From IMG/VR virus record IMGVR_UViG_2687453300_000007: DNA of 40,665 nucleotides; one strand, given 5' to 3'. This DNA comes from a virus. Taxonomy: Duplodnaviria > Heunggongvirae > Uroviricota > Caudoviricetes. This document shows positions 6,084-12,972 of the stretch, piece by piece (position 1 is the stretch's first letter; each line of letters opens with the position of its first letter). Made by a program: the position numbers and the translations under genes. The notes under the pieces were generated by a model. That model did not search any database and was not told where the DNA came from. It saw only the letters and a program-made list of their open reading frames with translations.

Positions 6084-8906
6084 ATGACGGCAGAGTACCT
6101 CAGGGACTGGCAACAACCGCGCCACGCAGTGGGGCGTGAAGGAACGGGGATCCCCGCTCCTGAATCCGCGCTTTCCTCCTGGCTGGATGCCTACCGGGCA
6201 GAGAACGAGCGCCGCCAGGAAATGGCTGATGCGGCGTTCTCAGCCACGCCGCTGGGCAACCTGATTAATAAAAGCCTGGACGCACAGGAAAAACAGGACA
6301 AAACCATCACACTGGCAGGAGACGCCAGAAAACAGGCACGTGGCGCGGTGGATGAAGCCATGGCCTCGCTGCGCCTGCTGCCGTCCTATCTGCGCGATCC
6401 GCTTATTCGCCACCTCTCCTTCCTGCGCAAAAAACAGGAAGCCGATCGCCGGAAAGGCAAAAAGAGCTGGCAGGCGGAACGCTATGCACGCGGAACCCTG
6501 CGCAAAATATTCGAACGTCTGGATAGCACTGACGGACGCTGGCTGACACCGGGTTATCGCTCCCTTGCCGGACGCGAACGCCTGGACGATTTGCTTTACC
6601 TGCCGCAGCTCAACAAACACCAGATACAGACGCTGGCCACCATGACGGCGGCGATGTTCAGCAGCACCTTCGAAAAACTCTGCGATGGCTTTGGCGCGAC
6701 CGATGGCGAGCTGACCATGGATGTAACCCTGAAGGCGTATCAGATGCTGGCCCGCATGGCGTTACACCTGCACGCCATGCCTCCACATTATGACGCACTG
6801 ACAACAGACAAAGACCGGAGGAACGAACCGGACACGGAGCTGCTGCCGGGCGCAATCCTTCGCCTGACCTGTGCGGAATGGTGGAAACGCAAACTGTGGC
6901 TGTTACGTTGCGAGTGGAGAGAAGAACAACTCCGCGCCGCCTGTCTGGTTTCCAGAAAAACATCACCCTATCTGAGCCAGGACGCGTTAAGCGAGTTTCG
7001 CGCACAGCGCGAGAAAACACGCGATTTCCTGAAAAGTTTCATGCTGGAAAATGAAGACGGGTTCACGATTGATCTCGAGACAGTGTATTACGCGGGAGTA
7101 AGTAACCCGGTTCACCGTAAGGCAGAAATGATGGCCACCATGAAGGGACTGGAACTTCTGGCCGAAGCCCGTGGCGACAAAGCGGTGTTTCTGACTGTCA
7201 CCTGCCCGTCAAAATACCACGCCACAACGGAGAACGGTCATCCGAATCCCAAATGGAACGGGGCCACAATGCGCGACTCCAGCGATTACCTGGTTAACAC
7301 GTTTTTTGCGGCGGTCCGCAAAAAACTGAACCGCGACGGCCTGCGCTGGTATGGCATCCGCACGGTGGAGCCTCATCATGACGGCACCGTGCACTGGCAT
7401 ATGATGGTCTTTGCACATCCGGAAGAAATCGACACCATTGTGTCCCATACCCGCGATATTGCCATTCAGGAAGACCGCCACGAGCTGGGCAATGATATTA
7501 CTCCGCGCTTTAAGGTGGAGTATGTCGACGGCTCAAAAGGCACGCCAACCAGCTACATCGCCACCTACATCGGAAAGAACCTGGACAGCCGCGCCGTGGA
7601 TGGCATCGACCCGAAAACGGGCAAGCCACGCGTGGACCACGAAACCGGAAAATCAATGGCCGAGAGCGTGGAGCGCGCCATCGGCTGGGCGCGCCTTCAC
7701 CGGGTCCGTCAGTTCCAGTTCTTTGGCATCCCCTCCCGTCAGGTGTGGCGTGAACTGCGCCGCCTTGCCAGCCAGATGGCACGCAATCCGGAAGGCCCGC
7801 AACGGCTGAAAGATGATGCAATGGATGCGGTACTCGCTGCCGCCGATGCCGGGTGTTTTGCCACCTACATTGAAAAACAGGGTGGCGTGCTTGTTCCACG
7901 CAAGGACTACCTGATTCGCACCGCCTACGACCTCGCAGATGAGCTGAACGATTACGGCGAACAGAGCGTACAGATTTACGGGATCTGGTCACCACTCATC
8001 GGGGAATCCTCCCGTGTGTGCACGCATCCGGATAACTGGAAGCTGGTAAGACGTAAACCGGAAGCGGAAGACAGCGCCCGCGAAAATGGTTTTGACCTTC
8101 AGGGCGGCCCTGCCGCCCCTTGGACTCGTGGCAATAACTGTCCCCGTGTACAGGAAACGGACAACAACGGGACAGAACAGCCGGAAGAACGGCCAGCACC
8201 GTGGCCGCAGCTCCCTGACGGCGTTGAAGTGAACGAATGGATGCGCTCACTGAAACGACACGAACGCCGGGCGCTGATGCGTTCGCTTCGTGACAAACAG
8301 GCAAAAAACAGCAGCGATGAAATGCAGAGCTGGACACAGAGCCGCAAACAGCAGCGGCCTTTGCCTGATAACCACGAATTACTCGCTAAAGAATGGCGGG
8401 AGTCTGCTGAATCTCTCGGCCTGCATATCGGTGAACAACAGATGCAGCACCTGTTACGGGGCGGCAGTCTGTACGTTGACGGCAGCATCATTGCACCGCA
8501 GGGATTTGAAATTGTACGCAAACCGGATACCCGCCCGGACAGCCGAATCACGCAGCTCTGGCAGCGCCTGAGCCGTAATCATGGCGTAAGCAGCACGGAG
8601 ATCCGCCATAACCCGGTCGCCAGCTATCTGGCACAGCTGGGGGCATCAGACCCTGAAGCCGCCGCACGCCTGGCATCCACACTTCAGCAGGGCCAGAACA
8701 CCATGAAAACACCCGTTACCGTGCTTTCTGACATGCTGCGCGCCATCCGCGACGCAGAGCACGCACAGAGAATCAGTGAAACCACTGAACGCGCCAGCCG
8801 CAAAGCAGACCTGCTGCGGGGTGGCCTGACCAGTGGAAACAAAAAACAGACAGAAACGGGACTTACGAATCCCGTAAATGAGCAAAAAACGCGCAGCGAT
8901 ATATGA
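6084..8906 (+). CDS. A: Rolling-circle replication initiation endonuclease (P2 gpA-like)
   Basis: 940-aa ORF carrying the HUH-type motif region …TVEPHHDGTVHWHMMVF… and tyrosine-bearing segment …YIATYIGKN… typical of P2 A-family proteins. Confidence 0.9.
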   Translation: MTAEYLRDWQQPRHAVGREGTGIPAPESALSSWLDAYRAENERRQEMADAAFSATPLGNLINKSLDAQEKQDKTITLAGDARKQARGAVDEAMASLRLLPSYLRDPLIRHLSFLRKKQEADRRKGKKSWQAERYARGTLRKIFERLDSTDGRWLTPGYRSLAGRERLDDLLYLPQLNKHQIQTLATMTAAMFSSTFEKLCDGFGATDGELTMDVTLKAYQMLARMALHLHAMPPHYDALTTDKDRRNEPDTELLPGAILRLTCAEWWKRKLWLLRCEWREEQLRAACLVSRKTSPYLSQDALSEFRAQREKTRDFLKSFMLENEDGFTIDLETVYYAGVSNPVHRKAEMMATMKGLELLAEARGDKAVFLTVTCPSKYHATTENGHPNPKWNGATMRDSSDYLVNTFFAAVRKKLNRDGLRWYGIRTVEPHHDGTVHWHMMVFAHPEEIDTIVSHTRDIAIQEDRHELGNDITPRFKVEYVDGSKGTPTSYIATYIGKNLDSRAVDGIDPKTGKPRVDHETGKSMAESVERAIGWARLHRVRQFQFFGIPSRQVWRELRRLASQMARNPEGPQRLKDDAMDAVLAAADAGCFATYIEKQGGVLVPRKDYLIRTAYDLADELNDYGEQSVQIYGIWSPLIGESSRVCTHPDNWKLVRRKPEAEDSARENGFDLQGGPAAPWTRGNNCPRVQETDNNGTEQPEERPAPWPQLPDGVEVNEWMRSLKRHERRALMRSLRDKQAKNSSDEMQSWTQSRKQQRPLPDNHELLAKEWRESAESLGLHIGEQQMQHLLRGGSLYVDGSIIAPQGFEIVRKPDTRPDSRITQLWQRLSRNHGVSSTEIRHNPVASYLAQLGASDPEAAARLASTLQQGQNTMKTPVTVLSDMLRAIRDAEHAQRISETTERASRKADLLRGGLTSGNKKQTETGLTNPVNEQKTRSDI

Positions 8907-8982: not shown

Positions 8983-9942
8983 ATGAAAATTTGTATCGAC
9001 GACGGCTCCACCAACATCAAGCTGGCATGGACTGAGAATGGCGAACGCCGCAACGCCATCAGCCCGAACAGCTTCAAGTCGGAATGGTCTGCGCCGTTCG
9101 GTGGCATGCAGCCCGCGAACTACATGCTTGATGGCGTGCGCTATGGTTTTGATCCGGTTAGCGATCGCTTTGTCCAGACGACCGACACGCAATACCAGTA
9201 CAGCGATGTGAATGTAATCGCCATTCATCACGCGCTGGTCAAATCAGGCATCACGCCACAGGAGGTGGATGTGGTTGTCACCCTGCCACTGAGCGAGTAT
9301 TTCGACACAAACGCACAGCCGGACATGGCCAACATCAACCGCAAAAAAGCGAACGTTATGCGCCCGGTGGAATACCAGAACGGCGAAGCATTCACTATCC
9401 GTAACGTGCGGGTTATGCCTGAATCCATTCCGGCTGGCTTTAAAGCACTGGCTGACATGAGTCCGTTTGAATCCCTGCTGATTGTGGATTTAGGCGGAAC
9501 CACGCTGGATGTGGCAAAGGTTCAAGGGCAACTGGCAGGTATCAGCCAGGTGTTTTGCGATCCACACGTAGGCGTTTCCCTGATGGCCGATGCCGTACTG
9601 TCGGTGATGGCCACTAACGGTATGCGCACCAGTCACCACATCGCCAATACCATTATCGAACATCGCCATGATGAAGCCTGGCTGCGCCAGCACATCCACA
9701 ATGACGCGCATTACGCCAGCCTGATGGCGGTTATTCGTGAAAAGGAAGAAACACTGAAACAACGCGTGATCCGCGCGCTGGCGGTTTTTTCGGGTTACGG
9801 GCGGGTGATGGTTGTCGGTGGAGGGGCGGAGATTGTGGCACCCGCTATCCGCGAAGTCTGCGGAGTTAATGCGACTTTCATCGCGGACGGGGTGCCACAG
9901 TTTGCTCTGGTTAATGGGCTGTACGCAATGGACAAGGAGTAA
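8983..9942 (+). CDS. parM: ParM/StbA-like actin-type segregation ATPase
   Basis: N-terminus MKICIDDGSTNIKLAW…ISPNSFK…YSDVNVIAIHHAL closely parallels plasmid R1 ParM as I recall it (MLVFIDDGSTNIKLQW…ISPNSFK…YSDVNVVAVHHAL). Also has the DxGGxT phosphate motif (IVDLGGTTLD). Confidence 0.8.
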   Translation: MKICIDDGSTNIKLAWTENGERRNAISPNSFKSEWSAPFGGMQPANYMLDGVRYGFDPVSDRFVQTTDTQYQYSDVNVIAIHHALVKSGITPQEVDVVVTLPLSEYFDTNAQPDMANINRKKANVMRPVEYQNGEAFTIRNVRVMPESIPAGFKALADMSPFESLLIVDLGGTTLDVAKVQGQLAGISQVFCDPHVGVSLMADAVLSVMATNGMRTSHHIANTIIEHRHDEAWLRQHIHNDAHYASLMAVIREKEETLKQRVIRALAVFSGYGRVMVVGGGAEIVAPAIREVCGVNATFIADGVPQFALVNGLYAMDKE

Positions 9943-9946
9943 ACCA

Positions 9947-10261
9947 ATGACGACACCAACCAGACGGATAAGTTTCTATCTGAAGCCCGCCGCCGTCAAG
10001 AGTGAACAGGAGGCGTGCAATTACCTCGATAGCCTGCCAGCCTCCGAACGCAGCCGCGCGCAACGCGCGGCCTTTCTGGCTGGGCTAGCGCTCATAAAGC
10101 GCAACCCAGCATTTGCCTACTGGATGGCCGAATGGCCAGAGGACAACCTCCCCTTCAATACCGTTAGCATCAAGGAAACATACCAGGATAATCAGCCTAG
10201 CGGAGTTGAATGCAATTTTTATAAAATAAAAAAGAATATTCAGACCTTATTCCCAGAATAA
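9947..10261 (+). CDS. parR: ParR-like centromere-binding protein (putative)
   Basis: ATG 9947 with AAGGAG SD 7 nt upstream, 5 bp after the parM stop. Segment RRISFYLKP…YLDSLPASERSRAQRAAFLAGLAL resembles the RHH N-terminus of R1 ParR (…LDSIPQGERSRLNRAALTAGLAL…). Confidence 0.65.
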   Translation: MTTPTRRISFYLKPAAVKSEQEACNYLDSLPASERSRAQRAAFLAGLALIKRNPAFAYWMAEWPEDNLPFNTVSIKETYQDNQPSGVECNFYKIKKNIQTLFPE

Positions 10262-11724: not shown

Positions 11725-11738
11725 CCTATTTCATCCAT

Positions 11739-11765
11739 AAAAAAGGCGGGGAGCAAATCCCCGCC
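11739..11765 (-). terminator. Intrinsic terminator/attenuator immediately upstream of the 165-aa gene
   Basis: On the minus strand: 8-bp GC stem GGCGGGGA / TCCCCGCC with a 5-nt loop, followed by TTTTTTAT. It ends 14 nt before the ATG at 11724. Confidence 0.6.
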
Positions 11766-11785
11766 TCATTAGAGGTCAACGTAGC

Positions 11786-11821
11786 TTAGAAACCATCAAA
11801 TTCATCATACATTTTTTTCAT
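11786..11821 (-). CDS. Putative 11-codon leader peptide (MKKMYDEFDGF)
   Basis: Minus-strand ATG 11821 preceded by GAGGGGG SD at 5-nt spacing. Stop at 11786..11788, about 20 nt upstream of the terminator stem. Confidence 0.3.
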   Translation of the reverse strand: MKKMYDEFDGF

Positions 11822-11921
11822 ATCAACCCCCTCATAGAAATCATAACCACGTTTTGTGGTTTTTGTGACGTATAAACTACATCAAAGGCAAGCCACGGTC
11901 AAATATATAGGCATGCTTACC

Positions 11922-12020
11922 TGCACAAAAGTGCACAAATTTGCACAATTTTTTTGAACGACTTTTTACCCTTCCGGCCCGCATGGCGGCTGGATCCGTC
12001 AAGGATCCGTGCGTGCACAA
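11922..12020. repeat. Iterated TGCACAA heptamers at 10-bp phasing, plus GGATCCGT direct repeat
   Basis: TGCACAA at 11922, 11932 and 11942 (exact 10-bp period) and again at 12014. GGATCCGT at 11992 and 12003. Located in non-coding DNA between the cargo operon and the orphan gene. Confidence 0.55.
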
Positions 12021-12347: not shown

Positions 12348-12447
12348 CGAAGCAGCAGACAAGCGAAGCGCGTCAGCGATACGGCACCTTGCCGACCATA
12401 CTTCATAAGTGCAAAATACGAGCAAAGAAATCAATGGAGGCTGTCTT

Positions 12448-12972
12448 ATGGTCATTAATTACAAGCAGTTAAGAGAAAAACGGGAGCAGGTAAAGGAGAG
12501 CTTTCGCCGCAATGAAGATCTGACCCCGCTTGTACGCCTTGCCCAGGGCATTGTTGATGCTTATGAAATCTCGCTGGAGCTGCCATCACAGACCTGGACA
12601 GATAGCGACGGTAATCGCCAGCATTACGTTTCATGCGGACTGGAAGCAGCCGAAGGATTTCGCAGAATGCCTTTATCCCAGATCCCTGCCGCTACCCCCA
12701 AAGCACGGGGCAGCAATGATGAGCGAAAACTGACTTTTAGTATTGAAACGGTGGTTGACGACACACCTGGCGAAGTCGCGTTCGTGCACACTCCTGTTTC
12801 GATCGCAATGTATAACGATGAAATACAGGTTCGCGTTAATAATAATATCGTGCCACTTAAAGAAGGTAATTCACCCTACACCACCGTTTGTGAAGCCATT
12901 CAATATTACGTTCTCTCTGAAATTGATAATCTCAAGCCTGACGGCACCCAGAAAATGGTTCAACTCTGGTAA
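12448..12972 (+). CDS. Hypothetical protein (174 aa) between the cos region and portal gene
   Basis: ATG 12448 with GGAGG SD 7 nt upstream (the track ORF starts at an upstream GTG). Convergent with Q. No family recognised. Confidence 0.5.
   Translation: MVINYKQLREKREQVKESFRRNEDLTPLVRLAQGIVDAYEISLELPSQTWTDSDGNRQHYVSCGLEAAEGFRRMPLSQIPAATPKARGSNDERKLTFSIETVVDDTPGEVAFVHTPVSIAMYNDEIQVRVNNNIVPLKEGNSPYTTVCEAIQYYVLSEIDNLKPDGTQKMVQLW

Follow-up and report, generated by a model that had tools for sequence, protein, structure and literature searches.

A predicted micropeptide gene and intrinsic terminator upstream of DUF4760 in a P88-like prophage and across the Proteobacteria

The window analysed here is a stretch of 40,665 nucleotides (nt), virus record IMGVR_UViG_2687453300_000007. 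It is a P88-like (Xuanwuvirus, P2-like) prophage, and E. coli ST131 prophages (e.g., those of EC958 and JJ1886) are identical to it over the region studied. On its minus strand, a tiny open reading frame (ORF) and an intrinsic terminator lie directly upstream of a gene for a 165-amino-acid (aa) protein of the DUF4760 family (Pfam E = 1.8e-34). Judged from its sequence, this mini-ORF is a conserved, unannotated micropeptide gene that stands in front of essentially every DUF4760 gene in Proteobacteria, and the hairpin behind it is predicted to be a genuine, positionally conserved terminator. The features of the locus are listed below; SD denotes a Shine-Dalgarno sequence, UTR an untranslated region, and TM a transmembrane segment.

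12043-12025, minus strand: conserved backbone terminator, which closes the late P-Q operon.
11902-11874, minus strand: promoter, read from the sequence, with -35 TTGACC (11902-11897), a 17-nt spacer, and -10 TAGTTT (11879-11874).
11861-11845, minus strand: 5'-UTR stem-loop AACCACAAAACGTGGTT, found by folding.
11833-11827, minus strand: SD GAGGGGG of the mini-ORF, 5 nt before the ATG at 11821.
11821-11786, minus strand: micropeptide gene of 11 codons plus TAA (MKKMYDEFDGF), unannotated in RefSeq.
11780-11771, minus strand: anti-SD box GTTGACCTCT, seen in minimum free energy structures, which pairs with the mini-ORF SD and start region in the folded short RNA.
11767-11739, minus strand: intrinsic terminator, with stem 11767-11758 / 11752-11743 (10 pairs, 7 of them G-C), loop TTTGC, and a T6 tract to 11739.
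11736-11731, minus strand: probable SD GGATGA of the DUF4760 gene, directly past the T-tract and with 6-nt spacing.
11724-11227, minus strand: DUF4760 gene, 165 aa, with an N-terminal TM helix and a helical domain.
11187-10345, minus strand: gene for a 280-aa multi-TM protein, co-directional with the DUF4760 gene.

An earlier, sequence-only reading of this DNA had named the mini-ORF with its SD, a terminator, and the 165-aa gene, and all of these are present on the minus strand where it had placed them. The 8-bp GC stem that it described was also correct, although a scan lengthens this stem to the 10 pairs given above. The stem-loop, GAGGCGGGGA-TTTGC-TCCCCGCCTT at 11767-11743, begins after 18 nt from the TAA of the mini-ORF and has a free energy (dG) of -18.9 kcal/mol as an isolated hairpin. 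The region holds nine terminator-like sites, compared with 2.9 +/- 2.1 in shuffled sequences, and the hairpin at 11767-11739 is the strongest of them. An Rfam search of the region gave only SorX over the hairpin, whose 19.3 bits (E = 0.24) fall short of the gathering score of 46.6. The 5' arm, GAGGCGGGGA, matches part of the P2 cohesive-end sequence, but the same hairpin occurs in non-P2 contexts.

From the position of the promoter, transcription is predicted to start at ~11867. Only 14 nt lie between the end of the T6 tract (11739) and the ATG of the 165-aa gene (11724), and the claim that there is no room for a promoter between terminator and gene is upheld, since the minus strand holds no sigma-70-like site between 11840 and 11372. 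The DUF4760 gene of the window would thus be transcribed only by read-through from the promoter upstream of the mini-ORF. The putative SD of this gene, GGATGA, is part of a conserved (A/G)TGGATGAA box in the block that is conserved after the T-tract. In some relatives ATG/GTG-GAT-GAA is in frame with DUF4760, so that the true start codon of the gene is uncertain. A second tiny ORF, ATGGATGAAATAGGATGA (MDEIG and stop; 11738-11721, minus strand), starts where the T-tract finishes; its stop codon and the DUF4760 start codon share bases (ATGA).

The mini-ORF is preserved well beyond the window. In the Citrobacter phage Shae_phiSM, identified by BLAST, the DUF4760 protein is 78% identical and the ORF is kept as MKKVFDEFDGF. 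In loci taken from species-representative genomes by means of a diverse DUF4760 protein alignment, an ORF of 9-15 codons lies directly upstream of nearly every full-length homologue. The encoded peptides end in DEFDGF, DEYDWF, DEYDGL, or DEFEGF in Enterobacterales, in NEGWDGF in Pasteurellaceae, and in NEGWGG in Rhodovulum. Very distant homologues, with 24-28% identity, also carry the ORF, as in Acinetobacter (...MNEGWDF-stop), Neisseria (...SDGWDGND-stop), and Pasteurella multocida (MMKQFNEGWEV-stop). For the pattern obtained by back-translating the peptide, no match is expected in shuffled versions of the window.

The linkage was surveyed in 153 full-length DUF4760 loci from genomes, metagenomes, and viral contigs, which were selected by protein homology alone and span 26-100% identity. 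A motif-bearing ORF of 7-22 codons is found directly upstream in 148 of these loci, compared with none of the 153 reverse-strand controls. Among the five loci without a scored ORF, two have lost the stop codon, giving MKKAFDEFDGFYIMK, one carries IS421 in the hairpin, one has an ORF that the script overlooked (MKRTLNDGWEDY and stop), and one is unexplained. The DUF4760 family comprises 2,715 clusters at 50% identity (E <= 1e-3), and all eight of the distant family representatives that were examined have the mini-ORF. The linkage spans Gamma-, Beta-, and Alphaproteobacteria, and more than 150 independent loci show the complete arrangement. That the two genes are neighbours in one order and one orientation in 148 of 153 cases indicates a single functional unit.

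The encoded peptide is itself under selection. The 95 non-redundant modules encode 77 distinct peptides of 7-22 aa (median 11), and an SD-like motif precedes the ORF in all but one of them. Conservation is concentrated in the last six to seven residues, by the stop codon, with the consensus acidic, any residue, aromatic, acidic, Gly, Phe, stop; the N-terminus varies in both length and sequence. Across 18 loci chosen solely through their DUF4760, the six core codons give a pN/pS of 0.07, and variation is seen at the third position of six of the six codons, at the first position of two, and at the second position of one. All three stop codons are in use. In peptides of the E-G-W-D type the Gly codon occurs in all four synonymous forms and the Trp is invariant. 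This substitution pattern points to strong purifying selection at the amino-acid level.

Several "long" DUF4760 proteins in the databases (P0184, P0197, P0228) are over-extended gene calls, in which the N-terminal stretch of RWMGRLL type is an out-of-frame reading of an overlapping mini-ORF that ends in D-G-W-E-D-Y-stop. They were therefore rejected as candidate Rosetta-stone fusions. On a T4-like contig (L222, ~8100-8260), small overlapping ORFs after the lysozyme gene contain tandem EE[ND]WG[FLV] repeats (MFEENWGFISEEDWGLDEENWGV) that resemble the EGW-type motif.

The terminator is conserved in its position rather than in its sequence. A terminator was scored as a single hairpin with a dG of -12 or below and at least five T in the next 8 nt, starting no more than 70 nt from the mini-ORF stop. 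Such a hairpin with its U-tail follows the mini-ORF in 84% of the 95 modules, compared with 0% at 250 nt further into DUF4760, 6% in the reverse complement of the same interval, and 5% at 400 nt upstream. At least 10 stem types, unrelated between lineages, are found: GGCGGGG, GCGGGGC, CGGGGCC, GGTGAGTC, ACCACTCTA, CGATGGAGGC, ACGGAGG, ATCGGAGGC, GCTACCCGCC, and GGCGC. Unrelated stems at a conserved position imply selection for the presence of a terminator there. In Shae_phiSM the hairpin is preserved via a compensatory change from G-C to A-U. An observation of a different kind is the insertion of IS421 (~1.34 kb, target duplication GGGATTTGCTCCC) exactly in the terminator hairpin of some ST131 and related strains (L006, 3104-4500; L155; E. 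coli hits H19-H21), which parts the mini-ORF and promoter from DUF4760.

In about a third of the modules the stop codon of the mini-ORF touches or overlaps the start codon of DUF4760 (TAATG, ATGACTGA), with the hairpin then sitting within the first ~20-25 DUF4760 codons. In one such group (L045, L046, L059-L069, L110-L114), the codons for G-F-W-I-Q-T-G-A contain a strong hairpin with a U-rich tail. Among 16 sequences with a protein identity of only 40-86%, 13 keep its arms (GGC TTC TGG ... ACA GGA GCC) fixed at synonymous sites, while the codon in the loop is free to vary. One intragenic hairpin shows a double compensatory change (TAC/GTA) that alters two amino acids, and two sequences without the original pairing form larger alternative hairpins. 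These features point to selection on the hairpin at the RNA level. By its sequence, the intragenic hairpin looks like a terminator or pause element within translated sequence.

Short ORFs are frequent by chance, and immediately upstream of the module are the late P-Q operon and the cos region; the mini-ORF might then be accidental, with the hairpin insulating the cargo from phage late transcription or marking the end of a vanished upstream gene. However, a separate conserved backbone terminator (12043-12025) already closes the late operon. Furthermore, comparison with related phages by BLAST shows that the shared backbone stops at ~11922, so that all the elements named in the sequence-only reading, the ORF and hairpin included, belong to variable cargo and not to the backbone. 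The control rates (0/153 for the ORF, 0-6% for the hairpin) and the coding-type substitutions also argue against an accident. Given the comparative data, this explanation is effectively refuted and barely credible.

Most related loci share the promoter pattern TTGAC[TCA]-17 nt-TA[AG]TTT upstream of the mini-ORF, at a distance of 52-73 nt from the end of the -10 element to the ATG. Stem-loops of differing sequence occupy the same place in the 5' UTR of related leaders, a dG of -5 or below being reached in 46% of 48 loci and in 0% of shuffled sequences; these possibly stabilise the 5' end of the mRNA. The module might instead consist of two independent units, a small gene or small RNA with an efficient terminator, and a DUF4760 gene that is served by an unrecognised promoter or by other read-through, their adjacency reflecting co-inheritance. 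The terminator does appear strong, the promoter-ORF-terminator unit is autonomous in plasmids and other phages (see below), and in some distant lineages (e.g., Acinetobacter) the 45-90 nt from terminator to DUF4760 are enough for a promoter. In the window, however, a promoter cannot fit into the 14 nt between T-tract and ATG with a GC-rich stem just upstream. The physical overlap of the ORFs in a third of the modules and their near-universal adjacency (148/153) also make two unrelated units very improbable.

Having placed a leader ORF and a terminator before the gene pair, the sequence-only reading had proposed conditional read-through, either by mutually exclusive terminator and antiterminator folds or by ribosome-dependent attenuation. 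Folding of 22 homologous leader versions under equilibrium thermodynamics lends support to neither. No conserved alternative pairing of either terminator arm is found among the 22 leaders, and the penalty for forbidding the 3' arm to pair is 9.6-16.3 kcal/mol in 19, with 6.2 in a further one and 1.2 in the remaining two. In the window, the terminator pairing probability in the same model is 0.97 for the free RNA, 0.97 with a ribosome on the start codon, and 0.96 with a ribosome on the stop codon, so that the modelled ribosome leaves the terminator formed. Across the leaders, this probability remains at 0.87-1.0 with a ribosome footprint on either codon. The exception is L034, where an extended ORF ends 7 nt from the stem and the modelled ribosome lowers the probability to 0.60. 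In most of the clade the distance from stop to stem is 16-19 nt, which is just past the footprint of a terminating ribosome.

The attenuator-like layout holds in one respect, in that a translated-looking ORF does lie between promoter and terminator; the attenuation switch does not, for want of a competing fold. As in the trp, his, pheA, and pyrBI attenuators, a short ORF stands between a promoter and an intrinsic terminator ahead of a structural gene, with no promoter after the terminator. Unlike in those systems, there is no antiterminator or anti-antiterminator pairing, the mini-ORF contains no runs of regulatory codons, and the modelled position of the ribosome is without effect on the fold. 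A classical attenuator of the trp/his/pyrBI type was rejected because a competing fold is missing. Also unlike leader-peptide attenuators, the peptide is conserved across bacterial orders and classes and is present without the downstream gene. Given that the peptide is under selection, occurs family-wide (including in lineages without an intergenic terminator, in which its stop codon and the DUF4760 start overlap), and has stand-alone copies, the mini-ORF is not just a leader.

Another RNA element, the helix between SD and anti-SD, appears to be local. Between Shae_phiSM and the window, paired G-to-A changes convert wobble to Watson-Crick pairs in this helix, and in the close clade the probability that the SD is paired is 0.5-0.7, compared with ~0.3 after shuffling. 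The helix is missing from distant clades and, being confined to the close clade, is ruled out as a universal component of the module.

Stand-alone copies of the peptide gene bear directly on how the peptide might act. A unit of promoter, 5' hairpin, SD, ORF, and terminator, at 80% nucleotide identity, is present on ~47-kb plasmids of E. coli, E. fergusonii, and Klebsiella aerogenes and encodes MKKRYDEFDGF with synonymous changes. This unit adjoins a convergent parA operon (L004, 3000-3170; L007, 3000-3125), and no DUF4760 is present anywhere in these plasmids, which carry Rha, XRE, and ParA genes and are probably phage-plasmids. A small hydrophobic ORF after the plasmid copy was set aside, as its substitutions look non-coding. 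A scan of viral contigs ascertained by the peptide core alone gave 46 matches, of which 14 are not followed by DUF4760 and have none elsewhere in those loci. They form at least six independent lineages, each with an SD, where ~1 spurious lineage would be expected (for an assumed collection of ~1e11 nt). The orphan genes have their own SD and usually their own terminator, and their hosts include P88-like and other temperate phages.

An orphan is also found in virulent T4-like phages of the genus Karamvirus, where a 21-codon ORF (MFSLRKFD..FDEFDGF-stop) with its own terminator lies between a-gt.2 and gene 47, directly upstream of the latter. It is present in 38 phage records and is annotated as PG7 gp053 (Enterobacter phage PG7 CG98_gp053, L235, 504-569; also L203 and L204). 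By sequence, this 21-aa ORF may encode a mimic of, or decoy for, the peptide that accompanies DUF4760, or may match by chance. In two loci (L223 and L228) the mini-ORF, terminator, and DUF4760 have decayed jointly. Orphan copies without DUF4760 fit a product that acts in trans and are hard to square with a purely cis-acting leader.

The main rival to action in trans is nevertheless a cis-acting mechanism, which is close to the idea of the sequence-only reading and dispenses with alternative folds. The mini-ORF would be an upstream ORF encoding an arrest peptide, and a stall near its stop codon, dependent on a signal such as a metabolite, translation stress, or infection, would alter read-through of the hairpin or re-initiation at DUF4760. 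This mechanism is kept alive by the C-terminal conservation and by the translationally coupled arrangements. Conservation falls on the last six to seven residues, beside the stop codon, with a variable N-terminus, and arrest peptides of the TnaC type are likewise conserved at the C-terminus, a likeness that extends to the conserved C-terminal residues of SecM and Erm leaders. The 16-19-nt spacing of stop and stem is conserved; in the third of modules that overlap, the hairpin is part of the translated RNA and would be suppressed by a ribosome following behind; and in L034, with its stop 7 nt from the stem, the modelled ribosome weakens the terminator. Against this, the stand-alone copies in at least six lineages keep an intact SD, ORF, and terminator without any DUF4760 to regulate. 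No structure that a stalled ribosome would unmask was found in the class of the window, nor is a downstream element of the arrest-leader type (a rut site or a sequestered SD) evident there. The use of all three stop codons speaks against release-factor specificity, and the motif is kept both in translation-coupled genes and at separations of 45-110 nt. Taken together, these observations make arrest in cis rather unlikely.

Two groups of known systems, microcin C and the type III toxin-antitoxin loci, are the closest architectural precedents, and membership of both fails on defining features. In the microcin C operon, an intergenic intrinsic terminator separates the heptapeptide gene mccA from mccB-E (Zukher et al. 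2014, PMC4231749). As there, one promoter serves a tiny ORF (7 codons in mcc, 7-22 here), a terminator lies in a ~50-nt 3' UTR, and the downstream genes depend on read-through, so that an abundant short transcript (~105-130 nt), a minor long one, and a high ratio of peptide to protein would be expected. Unlike in mcc, there is no MccB-type (ThiF/E1-like) adenylating enzyme and no other biosynthetic, export, or immunity gene; downstream are DUF4760, a small helical membrane protein, and an uncharacterised membrane protein. The mcc heptapeptide ends in Asn, whereas the peptide of the window ends in Phe. Upstream RNA makes the mcc terminator weaker when no ribosome is bound; the terminator of the present module is predicted to form with or without one.

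The micropeptide could, on the mcc precedent, be a substrate resembling a ribosomally synthesised and post-translationally modified peptide (RiPP), or an exported signal, which DUF4760 modifies, exports, or senses, the terminator providing an excess of substrate mRNA. The layout is identical to mccA-terminator-mccB, where the short abundant transcript is essential (PMC4231749), the length of 7-22 aa with strict C-terminal conservation resembles tiny RiPP precursors, and DUF4760 is membrane-anchored. However, DUF4760 is small and all-helical with no recognisable enzymatic or transporter domain, the module usually holds nothing else, the peptide has no signal sequence, and orphan peptide genes would be useless as substrates lacking a partner. 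This proposal is accordingly improbable.

In the type III toxin-antitoxin loci (ToxIN, CptIN, TenpIN), a promoter is followed by the antidote, a Rho-independent terminator, and the toxin, and the terminator sets the excess of antidote. These loci reside on mobile elements and act in phage defence; their antidote is a tandem-repeat RNA, and phages can carry antidote mimics. The module shares with them, in architecture only, the order of promoter, gene in the antidote position, terminator, and gene in the effector position, and the orphan peptide genes of other phages parallel the phage-borne antidote mimics. Unlike in type III loci, no repeats are detected by TRF in the stretch from promoter to terminator, and the single array, of the TTGTGCA type at 11922-11948, is upstream of the promoter. 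Selection here acts on an encoded peptide. Nor is DUF4760 an endoribonuclease of the ToxN/AbiQ family, since it matches Pfam DUF4760 only, has no PADLOC match, and is a helical bundle.

DUF4760 family members are single-domain proteins of 150-200 aa, small and all-helical. Judging by the lysine- and arginine-rich stretch that follows the TM helix, the helical domain is probably cytoplasmic, in which case it could meet a peptide that lacks a signal sequence. The soluble domain takes in residues ~35-165, and K34, R45, R68, and R137 are invariant. The helical bundle shows a structural match, at the level of the fold, to the EP domain of the plant EDS1 family. EP domains (EDS1, PAD4, SAG101) are described as having no structural homologues outside the EDS1 family (PMC6377607). 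At the level of sequence, ten diverse DUF4760 members gave no match to the EP domain model PF18117 even at E <= 10. EDS1-family proteins also possess a lipase-like N-terminal domain, which DUF4760 lacks, having an N-terminal TM helix instead. Of all loci, the E. coli ST131-type variant alone has the 280-aa multi-TM gene (phrog_12528), which is thus ruled out as an obligate partner; it is a lineage-specific accessory outside the conserved module, which usually holds no gene besides the mini-ORF and DUF4760. Its product gives a weak PADLOC match (E = 1.1e-5) to Csx27, a membrane protein associated with Cas13b, and TM composition probably accounts for this match.

The cargo occupies a location of known interest. 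On the minus strand of the window the order is terminase (15784-14033), portal (14033-12987), the backbone terminator, the TTGTGCA repeats, and the variable cargo island, which places the module in the cos-proximal gpA-gpQ hotspot. In P2-like phages this hotspot holds anti-phage systems, and the supplementary table of the study that described them lists exactly the cargo of the window in at least 164 entries (DUF4760, StbA, Plasmid_stab_B, and two hypothetical proteins, WP_001068329), with no mention of the small ORF in that supplementary listing (Rousset et al. 2022, PMC9122126). The exact cargo is found in ~290 complete E. coli genomes, the pandemic ST131 lineage included. Literature searches on DUF4760, the peptide strings, and the protein accessions gave no relevant main text, the catalogue line in that supplement being the only hit, and no usable transcript-mapping data for ST131.

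Some neighbouring features of the backbone deserve mention. Three TTGTGCA heptamers with 10-nt phasing (11922-11948) lie directly upstream of the cargo promoter and are kept in the P88-like backbone. They are also near the start of one related phage record, so the region may be a cos site, and the heptamers could be binding sites for a regulator or for terminase. P88-like phages conserve genes for the plasmid-partition proteins ParM (StbA) and StbB (8983-10261, plus strand) between the replication gene and the cargo, a hint of maintenance in the manner of a plasmid or of a past as a phage-plasmid. Neither Pfam nor PADLOC gives a match for a 187-aa ORF (phrog_5091; 12409-12972, plus strand), which is convergent with the portal gene and separates that gene from the cos-proximal region.

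The reading that we favour, with moderate confidence, is a two-gene module in which a constitutive terminator sets the ratio of two products and the peptide, made in excess, acts in trans on DUF4760. Transcription would begin at the TTGACC/TAGTTT promoter, and the 11-codon ORF would be translated to MKKMYDEFDGF. Most polymerases would halt at the hairpin and T-tract, leaving an abundant peptide-only RNA of ~130 nt with stem-loops at both ends, and a minority would read through into the message for DUF4760 and the 280-aa protein. We infer that termination is partial and constitutive; the terminator would be largely a ratio-setter, keeping the peptide well above the membrane protein, and not a switch between alternative RNA folds. 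What the comparisons show is the ORF with its coding selection, its linkage to DUF4760 throughout the family, the conserved terminator, the lack of an antiterminator, and the orphan copies. The most likely target of the peptide would be the helical domain of DUF4760 in the cytoplasm, with the peptide serving as ligand or antidote. Situated in the cos-proximal defence hotspot of a P2-like prophage, the module may be comparable in its working to a toxin-antitoxin or abortive-infection cassette of the antitoxin-first kind. A pairing of antidote with effector, or of ligand with sensor, in phage conflict is suggested by the position in the hotspot and by the orphan copies that competing elements carry, although action of the peptide in trans and any role in defence or toxicity are, on the present comparisons, inferred.

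Several points weigh against this reading. The stem core (GGCGGG-type) in the clade of the window is nearly invariant, with compensated changes in only two of eight pairs, so that the case for the hairpin draws on the non-homologous replacement of stems, on positional enrichment, and on the codons of intragenic hairpins. Natural fusions of peptide and DUF4760 were looked for and none was found. DUF4760 matches no PADLOC defence model and is essentially without literature. The thermodynamic folding test ignores co-transcriptional kinetics, NusA/NusG, and the coupling of RNA polymerase and ribosome, and the tight 16-19-nt spacing, together with hairpins in translated sequence elsewhere, means that translation could modulate termination. 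Finally, the T4-like orphan lineage, taken alone, could be a chance match.

It is tempting to take the trans-acting module a step further, to a previously unrecognised kind of phage-borne immunity or addiction system. An over-produced cytoplasmic micropeptide of 7-22 aa, whose acidic and aromatic C-terminus with a free Phe resembles the C-terminal tails of single-stranded-DNA-binding proteins, would plug a membrane-anchored EP-fold sensor or effector, DUF4760, which would be activated when the peptide is lost or displaced in infection, and the orphan genes of rival elements (phage-plasmids, other temperate phages, and virulent Karamvirus phages with PG7 gp053) would serve as neutralising decoys. 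Such a system is offered here as a tentative possibility.

The mini-ORFs are predicted to constitute a new family of very small, unannotated protein-coding genes, with a median of 11 codons and 77 distinct versions. Their partner, DUF4760, comprises ~2,700 clusters at 50% identity, has no known function, and appears to be in obligate linkage with them. The cargo had been catalogued in a P2 defence hotspot without the small gene being noticed, and cloning only the annotated DUF4760 gene would omit the partner peptide and the promoter from any test. The conserved layout of promoter, peptide, terminator, and protein provides a concrete model of how very unequal levels of two products may be obtained. 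Orphan peptide genes in competing plasmids and phages suggest a relation of defence and counter-defence. Given that the EP domain has so far been deemed unique to seed plants, its match with DUF4760 may link bacterial and phage immunity with that of plants.

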